Source: a virus
DNA length: 37,804 bases
Direction: 5' to 3' (one strand)
IMG/VR virus record: IMGVR_UViG_3300010392_000295
This document shows positions 7,619 through 37,374 of the stretch, piece after piece. A model generated the notes under the pieces. It was not told where the DNA came from. It did not search any database and saw only the letters and a program-made list of their open reading frames with translations. How positions within the stretch are numbered: the stretch's first letter is position 1; each line of letters begins with the position of its first letter. A program made the position numbers and the translations under genes.

Positions 7619-7788
7619 CGCGCAACGAGCTTTTAAATCTCATTGGCATTGCATACGGCTTACCAGATGATGACTGTTGGAGAAACTGCGAGCTAGACGG
7701 AATTATAAATATTCTATCTGGCGGCACTGTTACACCATCAGTCACAATGAACGGCAAGCTTCGACAGATTCTTGCTTTAACTGTATAA
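7615..7788 (+). CDS. small hypothetical protein (57 aa) made of RN-x-LL-type motif repeats
   Basis: ATGA overlap with the upstream ORF. Product is MTRNELLNLIGIAYGLPDDDCWRNCELDGIINILSGGTVTPSVTMNGKLRQILALTV. It falls below the ORF-track length cutoff. Confidence 0.5.
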   Translation: MTRNELLNLIGIAYGLPDDDCWRNCELDGIINILSGGTVTPSVTMNGKLRQILALTV

Positions 7789-7793
7789 TGATT

Positions 7794-7900
7794 TTGCGGT
7801 TGCCTTGGCAGGGCCGCAACTAGGGAGCGCTCCCGACCTTACTGCCATAACTGCCAATCACTAAGGAATAACGCTCAAAGGATGAGCTTGCCTGCCAGAA
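7794..7900 (+). other. visibly GC-rich structured intergenic element (possible RNA structure or regulatory element)
   Basis: Hairpin ttgcgg (7794..7799) with ccgcaa (7814..7819). Perfect 12-bp palindrome gggagcgctccc (7823..7834). ctgcca occurs three times (7842, 7851, 7892) and its complement tggcag once (7806). Confidence 0.4.
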
Positions 7901-7925
7901 TTATTTGACATTGGAGAAATGACAA

Positions 7926-9179
7926 ATGTCTATTAGAAATAAATTACTTGAAGAAATATTGTCAGCAATACAATCAGGCTCTGGGTTGGTTGGTAGAGTT
8001 AATGTGACTAGTGCTGCTGACTTATCTGGTACGCTGGATTCAACCAAAGAATACTTTATTGATGGCGTTATTGATATGGGTAGCCAATCAATAGAGGTGC
8101 CTGCTGGCGGCTTGTATTTATCTGGCTACAATTTCGATACATCAAAATTAATTTCAAGCGCAGATAATTACACAATGTTTACATCGCCTATTGGTGGTAG
8201 CGGGAACGTTATCGGCAAAGATTACGCTGTTGAGGTAAGCGGAGCATCATCAAAGGTGTATGATTTAACGTCAGCTACAGGGTTTGATGCTTTTGAGTTT
8301 TCAAGGATAAATTACAATAACTGCGAGTCTCTAGGTGAAATTAACGGATACCGACAAGGCTTTGAGTCTGGTACTGGTAGATTTGGAGGTAAGCCTGAGT
8401 TGGCACTATCTGGTACTTGGGTTGGTGGTTATTTCATAGATGCTTCAATTGTTAGAAGTCTTGCTGATGGTGCTTACTCATTGTTTAAGGCTGGCGCTGG
8501 ATTTAGCATGGCTTCGCGCTTTAGGACAAATATGAACTTGGACTTACCAGCTAGCGCGTCATTCTTTGATTTTGCCCCGGTAAACTTTCCAAACCCTTCA
8601 ACAGTACAGGTTGATGGCGCGATAGTAACAAGGCAAGGTGTGCAAGATGCAACAGATACAAACTACACGCCAAATATAACCGCTGGAAATTTAGCATGCT
8701 CTTGGTCTAACAATATCGGGATGCCAAATACCTTTGAAGGCGGCGCTATTGGCATTGCCGCAGAAGCCGCAACAATAATCAACGCAGTTGATACATTTGA
8801 GGATGTCAACGCTGTAGCGTGGAATGTAACCGACTTGCAGCACTTTGACAGCCCCGTAGGCGGGCAGTTAAGGCATATAGGCATAAATCCAAGAGAATAT
8901 AAGGTTGTTGCGTCAATGGCGGCATCATCAACAGCAAACAACGTTCTAACTTTGAGGGTGTTAAAGTGGGATGACTCAGCCTCATCATTTGTGACGGTTT
9001 TAGATCAAGTTAGGCCAGTTAATAATTTCACCGGCGCAAGGGATGTGGCTTTTTTTAATGTGAACATAAATGCGACTCTAGACCAAAATGACTACATAAA
9101 ACTACAGGTAGCAAACAACACAGCCATAAACAACGTTACATTTGAAACTGACGGATATTACTTGGTGGAGGAAAGATAA
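7926..9179 (+). CDS. hypothetical fibre/spike-like protein, possibly beta-helix (depolymerase-like)
   Basis: 417 aa. The N-terminus MSIRNKLLEEILSAIQSGSG shares the motif of the two upstream ORFs. The body is a long repetitive beta-type sequence rich in G, S, N and T. The fold call is tentative. Confidence 0.4.
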   Translation: MSIRNKLLEEILSAIQSGSGLVGRVNVTSAADLSGTLDSTKEYFIDGVIDMGSQSIEVPAGGLYLSGYNFDTSKLISSADNYTMFTSPIGGSGNVIGKDYAVEVSGASSKVYDLTSATGFDAFEFSRINYNNCESLGEINGYRQGFESGTGRFGGKPELALSGTWVGGYFIDASIVRSLADGAYSLFKAGAGFSMASRFRTNMNLDLPASASFFDFAPVNFPNPSTVQVDGAIVTRQGVQDATDTNYTPNITAGNLACSWSNNIGMPNTFEGGAIGIAAEAATIINAVDTFEDVNAVAWNVTDLQHFDSPVGGQLRHIGINPREYKVVASMAASSTANNVLTLRVLKWDDSASSFVTVLDQVRPVNNFTGARDVAFFNVNINATLDQNDYIKLQVANNTAINNVTFETDGYYLVEER

Positions 9180-9198
9180 GGCGCATTAAACGCCTTTT
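9178..9198. terminator. hairpin between convergent genes (bidirectional terminator candidate)
   Basis: aaggcg (9178..9183) pairs with cgcctt (9191..9196), with a 7-nt loop and a T-run on the + strand. Confidence 0.6.
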
Positions 9199-9299
9199 AC
9201 CACCATAAAAACAGAAACCCAAAAAGCAAAGCACATACCAAAAGCGATAAGCCAAATTATCGCTTTTTCAACCTTACAAAATGGTTTTAAATCTTTCAT
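9186..9299 (-). CDS. small membrane peptide (37 aa)
   Basis: Product MKDLKPFCKVEKAIIWLIAFGMCFAFWVSVFMVVKGV has one TM segment. Its ATG overlaps the upstream gene's stop (ATGA). Confidence 0.45.
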   Translation of the reverse strand: MKDLKPFCKVEKAIIWLIAFGMCFAFWVSVFMVVKGV

Positions 9300-9475
9300 T
9301 TAACCGCCTTAAATTTATCAAAATCAGCCTTACTAACTCGATCGCCGTTAACGCGATAAGTCACCTGTTTTTCTTTTGCGTTGTTACGCGCTGCAATATT
9401 CCAGATAGTATCTGTTTTAATACCTGTGTTACCGCCCACGAAGTTTGAGCCGCCTGCTATACCGTTGTTAATCAT
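9296..9475 (-). CDS. small hypothetical protein (59 aa)
   Basis: Product begins MINNGIAGGSNFVGGNTGIKTDTIWNIAARNN... It is preceded by the conserved GGTGATTTATG initiation region. Confidence 0.5.
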   Translation of the reverse strand: MINNGIAGGSNFVGGNTGIKTDTIWNIAARNNAKEKQVTYRVNGDRVSKADFDKFKAVK

Positions 9476-9485
9476 AAATCACCTT

Positions 9486-9707
9486 TTAATCTTCGTTAGA
9501 ATTTTCAAGTAAATATTTATATTCATTAAACCTATATTTATTTCCTTCATGCTTTATGTAGCAGGAATCAAAGATAAAATATTCAGTTTCTTTTCCAGTT
9601 ACAGACTCATAATTGCTGCAAATCCTGTATTCGATACAGCTAATTACAAGAGATCCAATCAAAATAATTAAAGCCAAATCAATCAGAAAATCTCTGTAAA
9701 GATTCAT
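9486..9707 (-). CDS. small membrane-anchored protein (73 aa)
   Basis: N-terminal TM segment FLIDLALIILIGSLVISCI. Preceded by GGTGATTTATG. Its start overlaps the stop of the upstream gene. Confidence 0.6.
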   Translation of the reverse strand: MNLYRDFLIDLALIILIGSLVISCIEYRICSNYESVTGKETEYFIFDSCYIKHEGNKYRFNEYKYLLENSNED

Positions 9708-10372
9708 AAATCACCATAAAAAAGTTTAGTTAAAAGTTCGTTTATTTTTTCTTTGCAGTCAGCAGCAACATAAGCATCAGCGGCACGAGCAGCATCAGCA
9801 GCATCAGCAGCATAAGCAGCAGCATAAGCAGCAGCATAAGCAGCATCAGCAGCATCAGCAGCATCAGCGGCACGAGCAGCAGCATAAGCATCAGCAGCAT
9901 CAGCAGCATCAGCGGCACGAGCAGCAGCATAAGCAGCATAAGCATCAGCAGCATCAGCGGCACGAGCAGCAGCATAAGCAGCATAAGCAGCAGCATAAGC
10001 AGCAGCGTCAGCAGCAGCATCAGCAGCATCAGCGGCACGAGCAGCATCAGCATCAGCGGCACGAGCAGCATCAGCAGCAGTAACAGTAGATGTGTGTGTA
10101 TTGTTTAGAAAGTCAACAATTAAATCATACTTATCTGTGTAAGCCTTTATCGACTCAATGTTAATAAGTGCAACATCGCAAGCGAACCTTGCAATTTTAT
10201 CTTTTGGCAGTTTTTTGCCAGCCAACCATAGCAAGTCGGACGGGGTGCTTTTCCCTCCAATAAGCGATAACACTTCAACAGGCTCATCCGTGTTATTCGT
10301 TTGCTCGATAAATCTATCGAACCCTTCTTTGCAAGCTTTTAACTCAATCAACTCTTGTTTGCTAATTTTCAT
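9704..10372 (-). CDS. Ala/Asp/Tyr/Arg repeat protein with a Cys-containing N-terminal domain (reminiscent of Imm5-like AAxAA repeat proteins)
   Basis: 222 aa. The N-terminal roughly 95 aa are globular (ELKACKEGFDRF..., LLWLAGKKL, RFACDVALINIE). About 110 aa then consist almost only of A, D, R and Y (AARAADAADAAYAAAYAA...). Preceded by GGTGATTTATG. Confidence 0.75.
   Translation of the reverse strand: MKISKQELIELKACKEGFDRFIEQTNNTDEPVEVLSLIGGKSTPSDLLWLAGKKLPKDKIARFACDVALINIESIKAYTDKYDLIVDFLNNTHTSTVTAADAARAADADAARAADAADAAADAAAYAAAYAAYAAARAADAADAYAAYAAARAADAADAADAYAAARAADAADAADAAYAAAYAAAYAADAADAARAADAYVAADCKEKINELLTKLFYGDL
9761..10080. repeat. about 320 bp of imperfect tandem repeats with 3/6/9-nt periodicity (gcagca / gcatca / gcataa / gcggcacga units)
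   Basis: Seen directly in the sequence. The higher-order unit gcatcagcggcacgagcagc recurs six times with variable numbers of short units between copies. Confidence 0.9.
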
Positions 10373-10375
10373 AAA

Positions 10376-10516
10376 TCACCACATCAAATTAATAATAATA
10401 TCTAAAACTTTTGGCCCAGCTAAAACATACCCAACAGCAAAGCCAATCACCAAACACAATAAAGCATAAGTTGCGTATTCAAAAGCAAAATCAATCATCT
10501 TCATTAGATTTTCCAT
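10376..10516 (-). CDS. small membrane peptide (46 aa)
   Basis: Product MENLMKMIDFAFEYATYALLCLVIGFAVGYVLAGPKVLDIIINLMW has one TM segment and overlaps the upstream ORF. Confidence 0.45.
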   Translation of the reverse strand: MENLMKMIDFAFEYATYALLCLVIGFAVGYVLAGPKVLDIIINLMW

Positions 10517-10643
10517 CGCTTTCCAATCCTTCAAAGTATTTCATTTTTAATTCAAAGCCGGTTTTATACCCTTCTTCTTCCGCTCGCTTTGTCGCGTGAT
10601 ACGCTATTAAGTAATAACGTTCATCTAAATCTAAATCACTCAT
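10491..10643 (-). CDS. small acidic hypothetical protein (50 aa)
   Basis: Product is MSDLDLDERYYLIAYHATKRAEEEGYKTGFELKMKYFEGLESDGKSNEDD. It overlaps ORFs on both sides. Confidence 0.45.
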   Translation of the reverse strand: MSDLDLDERYYLIAYHATKRAEEEGYKTGFELKMKYFEGLESDGKSNEDD

Positions 10644-10722
10644 AATATTTACTCATAGATAAAAAGTTAAACCAATTTCGTGTAGCGCGCCTATCTCTTA
10701 ACTTCTGTTTTTGTATCTTCAT
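10636..10722 (-). CDS. very small basic leader ORF (28 aa), first in the minus-strand operon
   Basis: Product is MKIQKQKLRDRRATRNWFNFLSMSKYYE, preceded by GGTGATTTATG. It is very short, so uncertain. Confidence 0.3.
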   Translation of the reverse strand: MKIQKQKLRDRRATRNWFNFLSMSKYYE

Positions 10723-10746
10723 AAATCACCTCGTTTGTTTTTTATC

Positions 10747-10775
10747 ACTATAAACACGTATAAATTAAAAATCAA
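10747..10775 (-). promoter_or_regulatory. sigma70-like promoter for the minus-strand cassette
   Basis: On the minus strand: TTGATT, 17 nt, TATAGT, about 25 nt upstream of the first minus-strand start. Confidence 0.6.
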
Positions 10776-10777
10776 TA

Positions 10778-10806
10778 TTGAAATGATATTATTTTAATAT
10801 TATAGT
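10778..10806 (+). promoter_or_regulatory. sigma70-like promoter for the RHH / endonuclease-like genes
   Basis: TTGAAA (10778..10783), 17 nt, TATAGT (10801..10806). It lies back to back with the minus-strand promoter, and AT-rich inverted repeats (aatat...atatt) overlap it. Confidence 0.6.
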
Positions 10807-10830: not shown

Positions 10831-10959
10831 ATGTTAAAGCAAATGCCAATCGGCTTTACTGATAAGCAAAAAGAGTATTTAGAGCAACGCGCAAAAGAAG
10901 AAAGCAATTCAATTGCTGCTATTGTGCGCCAGTTAGTTAATAAAGAAATGAGTAAATAG
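10831..10959 (+). CDS. ribbon-helix-helix (CopG/Arc-like) small DNA-binding protein (42 aa)
   Basis: RBS aggag lies upstream. MLKQMPIGFTDKQKEYLEQRAKEESNSIAAIVRQLVNKEMSK fits a beta-strand, helix, helix RHH pattern. Confidence 0.6.
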   Translation: MLKQMPIGFTDKQKEYLEQRAKEESNSIAAIVRQLVNKEMSK

Positions 10960-10968
10960 AGGTGCATT

Positions 10969-11642
10969 ATGGGTTCAGTAAAGAAGGGAATGATTTTCAA
11001 GACTTCAAACTGCGGTGAAATAGAGGTTTTAACGGATGTAGTCAATGGGCATTCTTTGGTTAAATTCATAGAAACAGGATTTGAAAAAAAGCAAGCGTAA
11101 GAAGCATAAAAAGCGGAATGATAAAAGACAGAATGAAGCCAGTTAGGTATGGAGTTGGATTTATAGGTGTTGGAATGTTTAAATCTTATGAAAATGGAGT
11201 AATGACAAAAGAGTATAAAGCTTGGTCTGCAATGTTAAAAAGGTGTTATTGCAAAAAGACCCATGAAAAACAACCAACATACAAAGAGTGTGAAGTTTGT
11301 GATGACTGGCTTGATTTTCAGTTGTTTGCAGATTGGTACAGCAAATCATCAAGAGGGAGAGTGGATCTGGAGGTTGACAAAGACATAAGCGTTAAAAACA
11401 ACAAGGTTTACTCTCCAGAAACTTGCAAGTTAGTAACAAAGAAAGAAAACTTATCAGCTAGGGGAGTTAATTCGGATCCGGTATTTTTTGAAAATAAAGA
11501 TGGCAGAATAGAAGAAGTAAGAAATGTTAACAACTTTTGTAGAGATGAAGGGTTAACGCAAAGTGCAATGTCAAGAGTCGCTAGAGGTAAAATGAAATCG
11601 CACAAAGGATGGTTTTTGTGTGATTTCCAAAGTGTAAAATAA
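10969..11642 (+). pseudogene. homing-endonuclease-like gene split by a frame change at an A7 run (paralog of 30592..31245)
   Basis: The 10969..11100 product MGSVKKGMIFKTSNCGEIEVLTDVVNGHSLVKFIETGFEKK aligns with the N-terminus of the intact paralog. The -1 frame from 11085 onward (KKASVRSIKSGMIKDRMKPVRYGVGFIGVG...) continues colinearly. The junction is A_AAA_AAG at 11085..11091. Confidence 0.75.
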
Positions 11643-23506: not shown

Positions 23507-24490
23507 TTAAAAATTAGAGTTTACAAAAAGTATGTCACCAGCTGCAATAGCATTGCAAATTAAAATAGCTTGCTCTTTTGTTACGCCTGCAACATCAACC
23601 ATTTTCTTTGCAGCCTCATTGCGGTTTTTAGTGCGAGTTTGACGGGCTTTTTGTTCAGCCTCCATCTTTTCTTTCGCAATGCGCTCAGCTTCCTCCTTTG
23701 CTTTTTGCTCCACTTCAATTCGCTCGCGCTCTTGCTTTTCAGCTAGCGCCTTCATTTCTTCTGCGTGCTTTTCTTCTGCTTCTTTACGCTCGATTTCTCG
23801 CTGCTTTTCAAGCTCAAGCATTTCAATTCTTCTTTTTTCTTGCGCAGCTTCAAATTCAGCCTTTTCTTTTGCTTCTTGAATTTCGCGCTGCTGGCGCTCT
23901 ATTTCGCGCTGCTTAGCTTCCATTTCTTCTTGCTGCTTTTTCATTTGCTCAAATTGAATCTTCTGAGTTAATGACGATGACAGCTGAGATATTGTAACGT
24001 TAAGCTTGTCGATATAGCTATCCAATCGCGCACCAAAGAAGTCAGGGCAAACATCGGCGTCTTGAAGGGAGTCGATAACACCTTGAATTGAATCTGAGTT
24101 AACATCAGGGTTTGCGCTATAAATCAAATACTGATCAAGTTCGTCAAATTTATTTTGAACAGCTTGTGCTGCTTCTTCTTTTTTTCGCTTGATTTCTGCA
24201 TCGTGGCTTTTGTATGCGTCTTTGTGAGGCTTTTCAACTGCCTCAATTAAAGTTAAAAGCTCTTTCTTTTTGCCGTCCAGAAACTTGCAAGCATCCCAAA
24301 AAGGTTGTTTTATTTCCTTGTGCGCAGACTCCAAAGCTTTGCGCATTGGCATTGTATTATCAAGGACAAAGCGCTTTGATGCGTTATATCCTTCTTTTGT
24401 TGACATATCCGGTATGAAGTTGCCAAGTTCTGCAACATCATTAACATCAGACATTACCTTATCAAATTTTGCTAAATCGTAGTTTTCCAT
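23507..24490 (-). CDS. E/K-rich coiled-coil protein, possibly DUF1351-like recombination-associated
   Basis: 327 aa, downstream of the annealase in the same operon. The central region is rich in E, K, Q and R. The family assignment is tentative. Confidence 0.4.
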   Translation of the reverse strand: MENYDLAKFDKVMSDVNDVAELGNFIPDMSTKEGYNASKRFVLDNTMPMRKALESAHKEIKQPFWDACKFLDGKKKELLTLIEAVEKPHKDAYKSHDAEIKRKKEEAAQAVQNKFDELDQYLIYSANPDVNSDSIQGVIDSLQDADVCPDFFGARLDSYIDKLNVTISQLSSSLTQKIQFEQMKKQQEEMEAKQREIERQQREIQEAKEKAEFEAAQEKRRIEMLELEKQREIERKEAEEKHAEEMKALAEKQERERIEVEQKAKEEAERIAKEKMEAEQKARQTRTKNRNEAAKKMVDVAGVTKEQAILICNAIAAGDILFVNSNF

Positions 24491-30591: not shown

Positions 30592-31245
30592 ATGTCAAAA
30601 GTTTTAATTAATGAAATTTACAGATCAAACTCAAGCGGCGAGTTCATTGTTTTATGCAAACTTCCAGGCTATAGGTCTATAGTTCAATTTTTAAAAACAG
30701 GTTTTACAAAAAACGTTAGAACAAACAAAGTTTTAACTGGTGAAATATCTGACCCATTAAGAAGATCCGTTTATGGCATTGGTTTTTTCGGGATTGGCAA
30801 ACACGTATCAAGTAGGAACGGTGTTGAACTAAATAAATACACAGCATGGAGCAATATGCTTGAAAGGTGCTATTCAGAATCATTCCATAAAAACAGACCC
30901 AAATACAGCGATTGCTTTGTTTGTGATGAATGGCTTAATTATCAAAATTTCGCTGACTGGTATGAAGAAAATTATATTGAAGGTATGCACGTTGAAAAAG
31001 ATATACTTATAGATGGTAATAGGTGTTACAGTCCAGGTACATGTTCATTTAAAAGCTGTCAAGAAAATAACGAAAAGGCATTTTCTAAAAATTACAAAGT
31101 TATATCACCACACGGCGAAGTTTTTAAAGTTTACAACATGAATAAATTTTGCAGAGAAAACGGGTTAACAAGCAGTGCAATGTACAACGTTGCAAATGGA
31201 AAGCAAAGAAATCACAAAGGGTGGTCACTAGACCAAAACATTTAA
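30592..31245 (+). CDS. homing-endonuclease-like protein (intact paralog of 10969..11642)
   Basis: YTAWSNMLERCY...CFVCDEWLNYQNFADWY and C-terminal GLTSSAMYNVANGKQRNHKGW (an HTH of the kind seen in free-standing phage endonucleases). It is colinear with the split copy. The exact nuclease family is not identified. Confidence 0.55.
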   Translation: MSKVLINEIYRSNSSGEFIVLCKLPGYRSIVQFLKTGFTKNVRTNKVLTGEISDPLRRSVYGIGFFGIGKHVSSRNGVELNKYTAWSNMLERCYSESFHKNRPKYSDCFVCDEWLNYQNFADWYEENYIEGMHVEKDILIDGNRCYSPGTCSFKSCQENNEKAFSKNYKVISPHGEVFKVYNMNKFCRENGLTSSAMYNVANGKQRNHKGWSLDQNI

Positions 31246-33778: not shown

Positions 33779-34090
33779 ATGAATCGTTTAGAGGCAATAG
33801 AAAAGGCGGCAGGCAAAAAAGGCAATAAGCTTATAGCTGAATTTGTTTTTGATGTATGCGTTGACCGCCCTGAGCGATTATCAACAGTTGAGATAATAGA
33901 TCGATTAGAGTGCATTGAAGTATTTACCAATCAAAGCACAATCAATAGGTTTATACGCAAGTATATTGAATACGGGTTTTGTGTTGGCGAGCAACCAGAA
34001 ACTAGGGGTAATGATTTTATGGGCGGGTTTAATTGGAGCCCAAAACCATTAGATAAAAATCAATTTAAACATTTAAAAGGAGCTTGGTAG
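33779..34090 (+). CDS. hypothetical protein (103 aa) with the same C-terminal motif as the upstream ORF
   Basis: ATG at 33779. The C-terminus is ...FNWSPKPLDKNQFKHLKGAW. Confidence 0.55.
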   Translation: MNRLEAIEKAAGKKGNKLIAEFVFDVCVDRPERLSTVEIIDRLECIEVFTNQSTINRFIRKYIEYGFCVGEQPETRGNDFMGGFNWSPKPLDKNQFKHLKGAW

Positions 34091-34482
34091 TGAAGCGAAT
34101 AAATATTAAAACTATGCACTTACCAGATTGCACTGTAGGTGTACTGTCTTTTTGCGGCTTAAGGTTATTTACTCTTGAATTACCATGGCTTGATAATGAA
34201 AAAAATGTGAGCTGTATACCGAGAGGAATTTACAGGGCCTATATAAGAAACTCGCCAGCTAACGGTTATGTTTTAGAGTTGCTTGACGTTACCAATAGAA
34301 CTCACATTCAAATTCACGCAGGAAATTTCACGCATCAGATAAAAGGCTGCATACTTGTCGGTGATTCTATTAAAGATATAAATAAAGATGGTGTGCCAGA
34401 CGTAACAAACAGCAAAAATTCACTCGCTAAGCTGTTGAATAAAATTGGCATTGATGAGCAGGTTGAAGTTTGCATTGAGTAG
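34090..34482 (+). CDS. DUF5675-like protein; candidate cell-wall hydrolase (His ... Gly-Cys motif as in YkuD-type folds)
   Basis: The start is uncertain: GTG at 34090 follows aaaggag. Motifs are TLELPWLDNEKNVSCIPRGIY and HIQIHAGNFTHQIKGCILVGD. It lies directly upstream of small TM ORFs. The functional call is an inference. Confidence 0.4.
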   Translation: MKRINIKTMHLPDCTVGVLSFCGLRLFTLELPWLDNEKNVSCIPRGIYRAYIRNSPANGYVLELLDVTNRTHIQIHAGNFTHQIKGCILVGDSIKDINKDGVPDVTNSKNSLAKLLNKIGIDEQVEVCIE

Positions 34483-35670: not shown

Positions 35671-35913
35671 ATGAGTAATGCTAAGTTTACAAAGGGTGAG
35701 TGGCAGCAAAGTTACGCGCTTGTTGTTTGTGGTGATAAAGTAATAACTGATTGTGAGAGCGATTTTACTAATGATGCTTGTGAATTATTCGCAAACGCTC
35801 ACCTAATAGCAGCAGCGCCAGAAATGTATAAGTTTTTAGATGACCTAGCTAACGGTCGCGGTACTGATTACCCTATCGAGCAGTTACTAGAAAAAGCGCG
35901 TGGTGAATTATGA
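35671..35913 (+). CDS. hypothetical protein (80 aa)
   Basis: ORF from the six-frame track, tightly packed. I recognised no family. Confidence 0.5.
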   Translation: MSNAKFTKGEWQQSYALVVCGDKVITDCESDFTNDACELFANAHLIAAAPEMYKFLDDLANGRGTDYPIEQLLEKARGEL

Positions 35914-36852: not shown

Positions 36853-37374
36853 ATGGAGTACGAAGCATGGGCACAGGCTCTCAACGTCCTCGTGACGAAG
36901 GTGACAAAGATAAAAAGTAATATCATCAGTGATGATTTAATATTTTACTCGCTCTATGTGCTGGTAATGGCTATTGGGGCGAGGTTTAAAATAGAAACCG
37001 CAAAACCATCAAAAGTACTACCGTTAGTTTTATCCCTTCTATTTTGCCAGCTAGCTTACACGCTAATGCTCAACGAAAAAGAATCAAATTACTACATAAT
37101 AACCACAATGTTTTACGTGCAAGCAATGTTTTACTATTCCAAGGTGAATTTAAAAACAGCAATAGCTTGTGCTATCATGGCGTTATATCTTTTCACCATG
37201 TCACGGGAAGCGGCCTATTATGAGAGTTATGGATCATCCTTTAGCGATGTACTTCACGATTCTTATTGGATGGTTATATTCCTACTTCATTGTATTATCT
37301 GCCTTACCTTTTTTTCTAGACGTGAATACAAGAGAGCTCACATGGGGCTGCGTTCATGTGTACGTCGCACTTAG
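36853..37374 (+). CDS. multi-pass membrane protein (173 aa)
   Basis: Four or five hydrophobic segments. The C-terminal part overlaps an alternative-frame ORF (37169..37471) that is also hydrophobic, so the 3' end is uncertain. Confidence 0.5.
   Translation: MEYEAWAQALNVLVTKVTKIKSNIISDDLIFYSLYVLVMAIGARFKIETAKPSKVLPLVLSLLFCQLAYTLMLNEKESNYYIITTMFYVQAMFYYSKVNLKTAIACAIMALYLFTMSREAAYYESYGSSFSDVLHDSYWMVIFLLHCIICLTFFSRREYKRAHMGLRSCVRRT

Follow-up and report, generated by a model that had tools for sequence, protein, structure and literature searches.

Morons, in the Juhala and Hendrix sense of 2000, are reportedly genes that are absent in close relatives, have their own promoter and terminator, differ in base composition from their surroundings, and are expressed independently. 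The phage exclusion proteins Imm and Sp of T4, Llp of T5, and SieA of P22 are small (<100 amino acids [aa]) and carry an N-terminal membrane helix or anchor. Morons lying in late operons can confer phage resistance, as is the case for Tab of phage JBD26, which is encoded between terS and terL, and for gp15 of HK97 (PMC10884400). In T4-type phages, hyperplastic regions are shuffled at conserved regulatory promoter and stem-loop (PeSL) motifs (PMC2839356, PMC4122927). Here we analyze an array of seven small open reading frames (ORFs) on the minus strand at 9186-10722 of IMG/VR virus record IMGVR_UViG_3300010392_000295, a stretch of 37,804 nucleotides (nt) to which we refer as the window. The window is a 37.8-kb metagenomic contig, JGI 3300010430 Ga0118733_100005304, of a marine siphophage related to Pseudoalteromonas phage H105/1, and the array lies inside its plus-strand virion operon, between a promoter-like site and a shared hairpin. 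An initial annotation, made from the sequence alone, had proposed that this block is an independently expressed moron or accessory cassette and a candidate undescribed system. We find that the block is very probably an accessory moron array, one whose gene content is reassorted among relatives behind a common leader.

Results

Gene content of the array varies behind a conserved leader

The seven ORFs, named here by the length of their products (o28, o50, o46, o222, o73, o59, and o37, in 5' to 3' order), were all present where the initial annotation had placed them. They are tightly chained, with overlaps of 8, 26, 4, and 4 nt and gaps of 3 and 10 nt. The block is also alone on its strand, as had been stated: all other non-nested ORFs of at least 80 aa between 496 and 23451 are on the plus strand, and within the virion region the guanine-cytosine (GC) skew is negative only over 8.5-11 kb. 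The GC content is 0.33-0.39 over 9.0-11.5 kb, compared with 0.40-0.44 in the flanking virion genes, a deviation in base composition of the kind ascribed to morons.

Variants of the array were gathered through homologues of o59, through an 883-bp viral-metagenome contig (L101) encoding the only close homologue of o73 (P0122), and through a search with the leader sequence. Eight arrangements were found behind one shared leader. The window reads o28-o50-o46-(o222-o73)-o59-o37, with the parentheses marking the position at which inserted genes differ between variants. L086 has o28-o50-o46-o59-o37, and L088 has the same order without o37. In L089 and L108, a 58-aa ORF is followed by o46-o59-o37, while L105 and L109 carry ORFs of 104 aa and 55 aa followed by o46-o59. 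L107 begins with o28, a 65-aa ORF, and o50. In L005, an 81-aa ORF, o28, and ORFs of 64 aa and 55 aa precede o46-(70-aa two-helix protein)-o59 and a 35-aa membrane peptide, and in L101 the order is an o46-like gene, then (o73-70 aa), then o59. The constant elements are the leader, o46, and o59 alone, the two genes being present in every complete variant, and the remaining positions are filled combinatorially from a pool of small genes. The genes assort independently and do not form the single undescribed seven-gene system that had been suggested.

The shared 5' region (10720..10775, minus strand) comprises a promoter-like site (-35 TTGATT at 10775-10770 and -10 TATAGT at 10752-10747, 17 nt apart), a leader, a Shine-Dalgarno (SD) sequence, and the first ATG. 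A 46-bp stretch of this region (10765..10720), containing the -10 box, the A-rich leader, the SD sequence, and the ATG, is 100% identical in L089 and L090 despite a differing first gene. Across six variants with differing first genes these elements are near-invariant, and the -35 region is less conserved. A search of the window for a second copy of the promoter and leader returned none. At the other end of the array, a GC-rich hairpin at 9178-9196 is a candidate bidirectional terminator common to the array and the convergent 417-aa gene, as had been described. It folds on both strands, with energies of -14.4 kcal/mol (z -3.65) for the minus strand and -12.3 kcal/mol for the plus strand. A hairpin that differs in sequence occupies the equivalent junction in every relative examined (L005, L086, L089, L001, L003, and L007), and the H105/1 record annotates a terminator at its equivalent convergent junction. 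Conservation of the -10 box and leader, together with retention of a junction hairpin in relatives, supports the presence of a real promoter, leader, and terminator without proving their activity. On these grounds, the conserved -10 box, leader, and SD-ATG appear to begin the array and the hairpin to end it.

The slot is variable and can be empty

The array occupies a slot between the 417-aa gene (7926-9179, plus strand; phrog_16509) and the gene for the head-tail adaptor Ad1. We fetched 80 metagenomic loci with a homologue of the 417-aa gene, 56 of which had at least 1.5 kb of downstream sequence. Where the 417-aa gene is at least 72% identical, the slot contains one or more small minus-strand ORFs, and relatives that are ~90% identical in this gene have a single, unrelated two-helix membrane gene there. 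Among more distant relatives, no minus-strand gene is found in the slot of L020, L027, L043, or L044, and in L029 and L034 the slot is empty, the adaptor gene directly following the 417-aa gene. Phages H105/1, HS5, and H103 carry 3 to 4 small minus-strand hypothetical genes between the 417-aa homologue and the Ad1 adaptor; by tblastn against these loci, their products are unrelated to the seven of the window, apart from a weak match to o59. Because relatives hold from 0 to 8 minus-strand small genes at this position, slot content is variable and the slot can be empty, and the array thereby shows the presence and absence among close relatives described for morons. This synteny comparison, which the initial annotation had proposed as a check, suggests that the slot has a fixed place in marine siphophages related to H105/1, with the head genes on one side and the head-tail adaptor on the other.

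Two side observations concern slot genes in general. An 80-aa gene in the early region of the window (35671-35913, plus strand) is 59% identical to H103 gp31 (L003, 10386-10640, minus strand), which lies in the minus-strand slot of that phage; this pair indicates that small genes are exchanged between the slot in the head operon and the early region. In addition, many slot proteins of the window, L001, L002, L003, L007, and L018 end in acidic tails (NED, DNE, EESPD, and GDEE). These tails probably reflect translational coupling, with the SD sequence of the next gene lying in the 3' end, rather than a shared protein motif.

An 882-bp insertion lies between copies of an 11-nt start motif

Comparison with L086, L088, L089, and L090 by blastn revealed a window-specific insertion of 882 bp (9484-10365, minus strand) that corresponds exactly to o222 plus o73 and falls between the two constant genes o46 and o59. 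It is flanked by direct repeats of GGTGATTTATG at 10370-10380 and 9473-9483. The insertion site is empty in L086, L088, L089, and L105 and holds other cargo in L005 and L101. We considered o222 and o73 as an obligate pair and rejected this, as L101 carries o73 but not o222, and elsewhere o222 is found with no o73 next to it.

The motif GGTGATTTATG is an 11-mer composed of an SD sequence (GGTGAT), a spacer, and an ATG, and it recurs inside one operon. The identical start sequence that had been reported for four of the seven array ORFs does precede them, but it is not specific to the block: the window contains seven exact copies (0.68 expected), including copies outside the block at 24488, 25212, and 35087. 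Given this distribution, it is best described as a start context used across the genome, with enrichment in the block (4 of 7 genes versus 3 of ~55; Fisher p ~0.002). Modules compared across variants begin with the motif, including the first divergent plus-strand gene in several relatives, and most insertion or replacement breakpoints coincide with it. It is absent from the H105/1, HS5, and H103 loci.

o222 resembles Imm5-type proteins

The largest product, o222 (222 aa; 9704-10372, minus strand), matches phrog_21347 at 4.6e-58. It consists of an N-terminal helical domain (residues 1-95), an acidic Ala-rich repeat (residues ~97-206; 72 Ala, 18 Asp, 10 Tyr, and 6 Arg, with a net charge of ~-12), and a C-terminal helix. 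Over its first 91 residues, o222 shares ~70% identity with hypothetical proteins encoded by Salmonella phage 9NA, Shewanella phages, and Vibrio phages. Among 190 database homologues, the weaker ones bear PF21805 (Imm5_like), PF14423 (Imm5), or PF22011 (DUF6931), and one bridging homologue (P0086) matches DUF6931 at 2.9e-9. With the repeats removed, a profile of o222-type N-terminal domains aligned to one of Imm5_like-bearing proteins with 98.3% probability by hhalign (E 1.6e-14 over 67 columns). In both groups, an N-terminal domain containing an invariant cysteine is followed by an Ala/Asp/Arg/Tyr repeat and then by a C-terminal helix. Pfam searches with the close homologues P0002, P0045, and P0062 returned no family at E <=0.1. 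AlphaFold2 modeled o222 with a mean predicted local distance difference test (pLDDT) score of 80, rising to >90 for residues 1-90, and rendered the repeat as two long helices; neither a sequence search of the PDB nor a Foldseek search with the model found a counterpart there. Sequence comparison thus suggests that o222 is a divergent Imm5-like protein, belonging to a family of widespread uncharacterized phage accessory proteins.

Imm5 has been predicted to provide immunity to DYW-deaminase and CdiA-CT toxins (PMC3482391), and the literature that we searched yielded no experimental test of any Imm5, Imm5_like, or DUF6931 member. The homologue of o222 in Salmonella phage 9NA is part of the early operon, and those in Vibrio phages neighbor replication genes; in one further case, the gene is on the opposite strand within the head module of another phage. 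No toxin neighbor was found beside the homologues in 9NA, the Vibrio phages, and L097.

The Ala-rich array is encoded by a tandem DNA repeat of period 9 with 36 copies (9759-10079, minus strand; Tandem Repeats Finder). Two candidate features were discarded as by-products of this repeat: a 109-aa Leu/Met-rich ORF (9742-10071, minus strand), which is the repeat in another frame, and an Rfam match to isrG (9728-9987, minus strand), which scored 22.8 bits against a gathering score of 100. In an ENA assembly of the same phage (L085, 37,410 bp), the protein (P0001, 4001-4393) is a 130-aa form missing 92 repeat residues. The 222-aa form is present on five contigs, and the shorter form is either real variation in repeat length or a repeat collapsed in assembly. 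The record of Vibrio phage 2.044.O (L092, MG592661.1) annotates "CRISPR spacers" at 2824-2897 within its homologue of the Ala-repeat gene, which is probably a false call arising from the tandem repeat.

o73 is a membrane-anchored protein with two conserved cysteines

The second inserted gene, o73 (73 aa; 9486-9707, minus strand), encodes a protein in which a membrane helix at the N terminus precedes a small conserved domain. A single close homologue (P0122, 84% identical) and 70 distant cluster representatives at E <=1e-3 were found, and the o73 family corresponds to phrog_37489 plus phrog_26710, both of which are functionally uncharacterized. The family alignment contains two near-invariant cysteines (C30 and C49) located after the helix. 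In the AlphaFold2 model (pLDDT 88.5), a long helix is followed by a three-stranded sheet and a short helix, and the conserved domain may be periplasmic. No PDB match was obtained by sequence or by Foldseek, and fold matches in BFVD were restricted to uncharacterized phage proteins. We also considered that o73 might be a lipoprotein and rejected this: the apparent lipobox cysteine (C24) lacks conservation among 40 family members, and the 84%-identical homologue has Gly at this position. The o222 and o73 genes belong to widespread families (Imm5-like and phrog_37489/26710, respectively), a further point against a single undescribed system.

In Acj61, the o73 homologue is situated between regA and gene 43, and in phiEap-2 it stands alone on the opposite strand inside the head module. 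Since o222 and o73 have homologues in accessory positions elsewhere, and a homologue of an H103 slot gene lies in the early region of the window, the cargo of the array appears to be drawn from a general pool of small phage accessory genes. Phage 9NA (L091, NC_025443.1) encodes an Ala-repeat homologue (gp10) plus a 69-aa protein with an o73-like predicted fold (BFVD A0A060D5M9), a hint of a link between o222-type and o73-type proteins in that phage.

The remaining small ORFs are under purifying selection

The first gene, o28 (10636-10722, minus strand), encodes a basic 28-aa product (isoelectric point [pI] 10.6), and its 3' end overlaps the start of the next gene by 8 nt. The C-terminal 20 aa of the product, RDRRATRNWFNFLSMSKYYE, are conserved, and an intact counterpart of 23-25 aa, with several synonymous changes, is present in L005, L086, L088, L107, and L104. 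It always overlaps the start of the following gene, whichever gene that is. The acidic, soluble 50-aa product of o50 (10491-10643, minus strand; pI 4.5) has orthologues that are 88-94% identical and gave no Pfam, PHROG, or PADLOC match; in L005, L089, and L105, other small genes stand in place of o50. The constant gene o46 (minus strand) encodes 46 aa from an ATG (10376-10516) or 52 aa from a TTG (to 10534), with a single membrane segment at residues 15-33; its counterparts of 43-47 aa are mostly 74-81% identical, and that of L101 is diverged (a DNA match of 41 nt). The other constant gene, o59 (9296-9475, minus strand), encodes a basic, soluble protein of 59 aa (pI 10.0), whose homologues are 75-95% identical and all in the same slot; a metagenome protein scan with it returned zero matches. 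Through the motif IWxIAARNN, o59 is weakly linked (E 0.02-0.003) to phrog_14264, which includes H105/1 gp32 and H103 gp32 in the same slot. The last gene, o37 (37 aa; 9186-9299, minus strand), encodes a single-pass membrane peptide with its hydrophobic segment at residues 14-32; L005 has an unrelated 35-aa membrane peptide in its place, and L088 and L105 lack o37. Hydrophobic helices are thus limited to o46, o73, and o37; the four membrane peptides of the initial annotation are three, as its own list of products had it.

Ratios of nonsynonymous to synonymous substitution rates (dN/dS) were estimated against orthologues by the Nei-Gojobori method, from counts that, although small, all agree in direction. 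The values were 0.08-0.34 for o59, 0.10-0.27 for o50, 0.30-0.49 for o46, 0.17-0.23 for o37 (against L086 and L089), and 0.15-0.19 for o28 (against L086 and L088). With dN/dS of ~0.1-0.5, these five core ORFs are coding, and the lack of coding conservation that would have spoken against a functional block is not what relatives show.

Searches of Pfam, PHROGs, and PADLOC gave a functional label for 0 of the 7 products, and five of the seven ORFs had no match in any protein-family library. The only PADLOC match for an array product was a marginal one (E 0.016) for o59. No toxin domain was found by Pfam or PHROGs among the block products and neighboring small phage ORFs, and a search for antisense or structured RNA found none, with only sub-threshold Rfam matches.

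Divergent side of the slot and genomic setting

Back to back with the array promoter-like site, and as initially described, a second site (TTGAAA-17-TATAGT, 10/12 matches) is present on the plus strand at 10778-10806. A 28-bp imperfect palindrome (10774-10801) covers the -35 regions of both sites. The ORF that follows (42 aa; 10831-10959, plus strand) has weak ribbon-helix-helix/Arc matches (E 0.03-0.08), and its product could be a local regulator of both divergent promoters. This side of the slot is also variable: relatives carry other plus-strand genes there, for which Pfam scans gave zero matches. Just past the block, ORFs of 43 aa and 174 aa (10969-11642, plus strand) align to residues 1-40 and 52-213 of an HNH endonuclease paralogue that is intact elsewhere in the window (217 aa; 30592-31245, plus strand; phrog_2081). 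The copy in the slot thus resembles a homing endonuclease gene that has been split or frameshifted.

By PHROG matches, the plus-strand order is large terminase, portal, MuF-like protein, scaffold, and major head protein, with the head-tail adaptor Ad1 and tail proteins later; beyond the tail genes, the minus strand carries an exonuclease gene, after which the plus strand encodes replication proteins, NinB, and NinG. The nearest isolates by protein are Pseudoalteromonas phages H105/1, HS1, HS5, and H103, whose 417-aa homologues are ~77% identical. A nucleotide-level search of isolate phages with the region gave zero matches, and a 2017 comparative paper does not discuss the block. The 417-aa protein had no Pfam match and no PDB match by sequence search. 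Its gene region (7761-9179, plus strand) contains a strong promoter-like site (TCGACA-17-TATAAT, 11/12 matches) and has the hairpin in common with the array. The gene is swapped for a 192-aa gene in L086, and its homologue in L089 is only ~50% identical; it may itself be a variable unit with autonomous transcription.

No holin or endolysin was recognized among the window ORFs scanned. The only lysis candidates seen in the window, judged from their sequences, lie just upstream of the terminase genes: a DUF5675 protein (34084-34482, plus strand) and a 173-aa protein (36853-37374, plus strand) with several predicted membrane helices.

Discussion

The moron or accessory cassette architecture proposed for this block stands: it occupies a variable slot, is AT-rich, begins at a conserved -10 box and leader, ends at a junction hairpin, and encodes ORFs under purifying selection. 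We regard the locus as a known kind of phage region and not as a new system, and we infer its functions from location predictions and from the Imm5 relationship. In the mechanism that we propose, host sigma-70 RNA polymerase would transcribe the array independently of the late operon. The strong translation-initiation sequence GGTGATTTATG would double as microhomology for module exchange, which the phage's own recombination genes (exonuclease, NinB, and NinG) could catalyze. The three membrane proteins, acting at the inner membrane or periplasm, might modify the envelope so as to exclude superinfecting phage, for instance, and o222 might bind and neutralize a nucleic-acid-targeting toxin or defense effector, as predicted for Imm5 proteins. 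These specific exclusion and effector-neutralizing functions are put forward tentatively. For the explanation as a whole, a self-contained hypervariable moron array with the proposed functions, we estimate a probability of roughly 0.6, a figure that blends our high confidence in the array with our much lower confidence in the functions.

Several observations weigh against this explanation. Transcription of the array from its own promoter is suggested by sequence, but the minus-strand hexamers, although present as described, have only 9/12 matches and occur at chance density (12 such sites found in the region versus 13.2 expected), so the case for a real promoter rests on conservation in relatives. 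The U-tract after the window hairpin is weak on the minus strand, although it is better in several relatives. Breakpoints at GGTGATTTATG could equally reflect the selection of viable random recombinants at gene boundaries, the motif being simply a strong, well-spaced SD sequence that is present elsewhere in the genome. No product resembles a characterized exclusion, anti-defense, defense, or lysis protein in Pfam, PHROGs, PADLOC, the PDB (by sequence for o222 and o73), or by fold. For o222 in particular, no Pfam family is reached at E <=0.1, which places it below the Imm5_like threshold, and no toxin gene is adjacent, its neighbors being small phage ORFs. No integrase or repressor was recognized among the window ORFs scanned, leaving expression from a prophage unproven. 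Finally, the retention across the clade of the o46/o59 pair, and of an o59-like gene in H105/1 and H103, fits a phage-intrinsic as well as an accessory role.

Such a role for o46 and o59 is the main rival to the moron array. Under it, the constant part (o46, o59, and the terminal membrane peptide) would serve a purpose such as lysis timing, the passage of DNA in or out at the inner membrane, or regulation, leaving the extra modules as the only cargo. The purifying selection on o46 and o59 and their presence in every complete variant fit this idea, as does the occurrence of a phrog_14264 gene with a small membrane-protein neighbor in the slots of H105/1, HS5, H103, L015, and L018. However, relatives with ~90% identity in the 417-aa gene carry a single unrelated membrane gene and several others carry none, indicating that o46 and o59 are dispensable across the wider group; the link to phrog_14264 is weak (E values as above), and Pfam and PHROGs revealed no similarity to holins, antiholins, or spanins. 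We therefore consider a phage-intrinsic core unlikely. It shares one supporting point, that no holin, endolysin, or other lysis module was identified elsewhere among the window ORFs scanned, with the narrower proposal of a lysis cassette on the opposite strand, in which the three small membrane proteins, one with a perhaps periplasmic domain, would act as holin, antiholin, and spanin-like proteins. Lysis is essential, whereas related phages lack the block or have a different one; no endolysin lies in or next to it and no enzyme-sized gene within it, no lysis-category PHROG was matched, and the DUF5675 and 173-aa proteins are other candidates in the window. Single-helix peptides of 37-46 aa are also smaller than typical holins. 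A lysis cassette is accordingly quite improbable.

Membrane peptides of 37-46 aa do match type I toxins in size, which brings up a prophage- or phage-borne defense or toxin-antitoxin-like module, with hydrophobic toxic peptides and neutralizing partners causing abortive infection of competitors. The promoter-like site and moron position of the block are in keeping with this, and defending late-operon morons are known (PMC10884400). On the other hand, the peptides are translationally coupled within a long operon and do not constitute a two-gene module, PADLOC gave only the marginal o59 match, and no antisense or structured RNA was found, making this module improbable. We give very little credence to the proposal that most of the small ORFs arose by chance in a non-coding or decaying spacer. 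Their shortness and the five without a protein-family match would allow it, but dN/dS is well below 1 for five ORFs, a 23-28-aa frame is kept with synonymous changes in five relatives, o222 has 190 homologues and o73 has 70 representatives, and the GC skew, tight packing, and SD sequences agree with minus-strand coding.

Taking the moron array as the preferred explanation, the locus offers a clean natural series of eight arrangements with one conserved leader, in which gain and loss of accessory genes in a virion operon can be resolved to 11-nt junctions. It flags two widespread uncharacterized families, the Imm5-like Ala-repeat proteins and the two-cysteine membrane-anchored phrog_37489/26710 proteins, as host-conflict candidates, and singles out the constant 46-aa and 59-aa pair for study in the cultivable relatives H105/1, HS1, and HS5. 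By itself the locus reveals no new mechanism. A bolder idea, which we also think unlikely, is that the slot is a dedicated integrase-free cassette array in which each gene carries GGTGATTTATG as a linker, phage recombination swaps modules there, and o222 represents a new toxin-neutralizing or anti-defense family. If this were true, the array would be a rapidly reconfigurable toolkit of a marine siphophage clade against hosts and other phages, and o222-type proteins would be a new anti-defense or toxin-neutralizing family common to marine and enteric phages.

Among known systems, o222 compares most directly with Imm5, Imm5_like, and DUF6931 proteins, with which it shares the N-terminal "M-I-k..L....aC..g" domain, Ala-rich repeats with Asp, Arg, and Tyr, and the C-terminal helix. 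It differs from these families in falling below the Pfam thresholds and in having the middle "YPDDKRPR" segment replaced. Unlike Imm5 immunity genes of polymorphic toxin systems, it is phage-borne with no toxin nearby, and its homologues lie in phage early or accessory regions. The small size and predicted membrane location of o46, o73, and o37 are points of likeness to the exclusion proteins T4 Imm and Sp, T5 Llp, and P22 SieA, as is the compact, possibly periplasmic domain of o73 with its conserved cysteine pair. No sequence or fold similarity to a characterized exclusion protein was found (Pfam, PHROGs, PDB, and Foldseek against PDB and BFVD), and o73 is not a lipoprotein. With T4-type PeSL shuffling, the array shares a short conserved sequence at module boundaries, where insertions, deletions, and replacements of ORFans break. 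The conserved sequence here, however, is an 11-nt SD plus ATG within one operon rather than a sigma-70 promoter plus stem-loop, and the array belongs to a siphophage and lies in the virion operon; recombination at the motif is deduced from sequences, and neither mini-circles nor junction products were seen for the array.

The closest counterparts of the array are late-operon morons. It differs from them in being multigenic, with 4 to 8 modules and a constant core in place of a single gene, in belonging to a phage for which lysogeny is not established, and in encoding no product homologous to a characterized moron protein (Pfam, PHROGs, PADLOC, and fold). Like HK97 gp15, JBD26 Tab, and P22 sieA-mnt-arc-ant, it is embedded in a structural operon and is present or absent among close relatives. 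Also as in morons, it has a lower GC content and small products, often membrane proteins, along with a promoter-like site and a candidate terminator of its own, and the pairing of divergent promoter-like sites with a small ribbon-helix-helix-like ORF is reminiscent of P22 immI.

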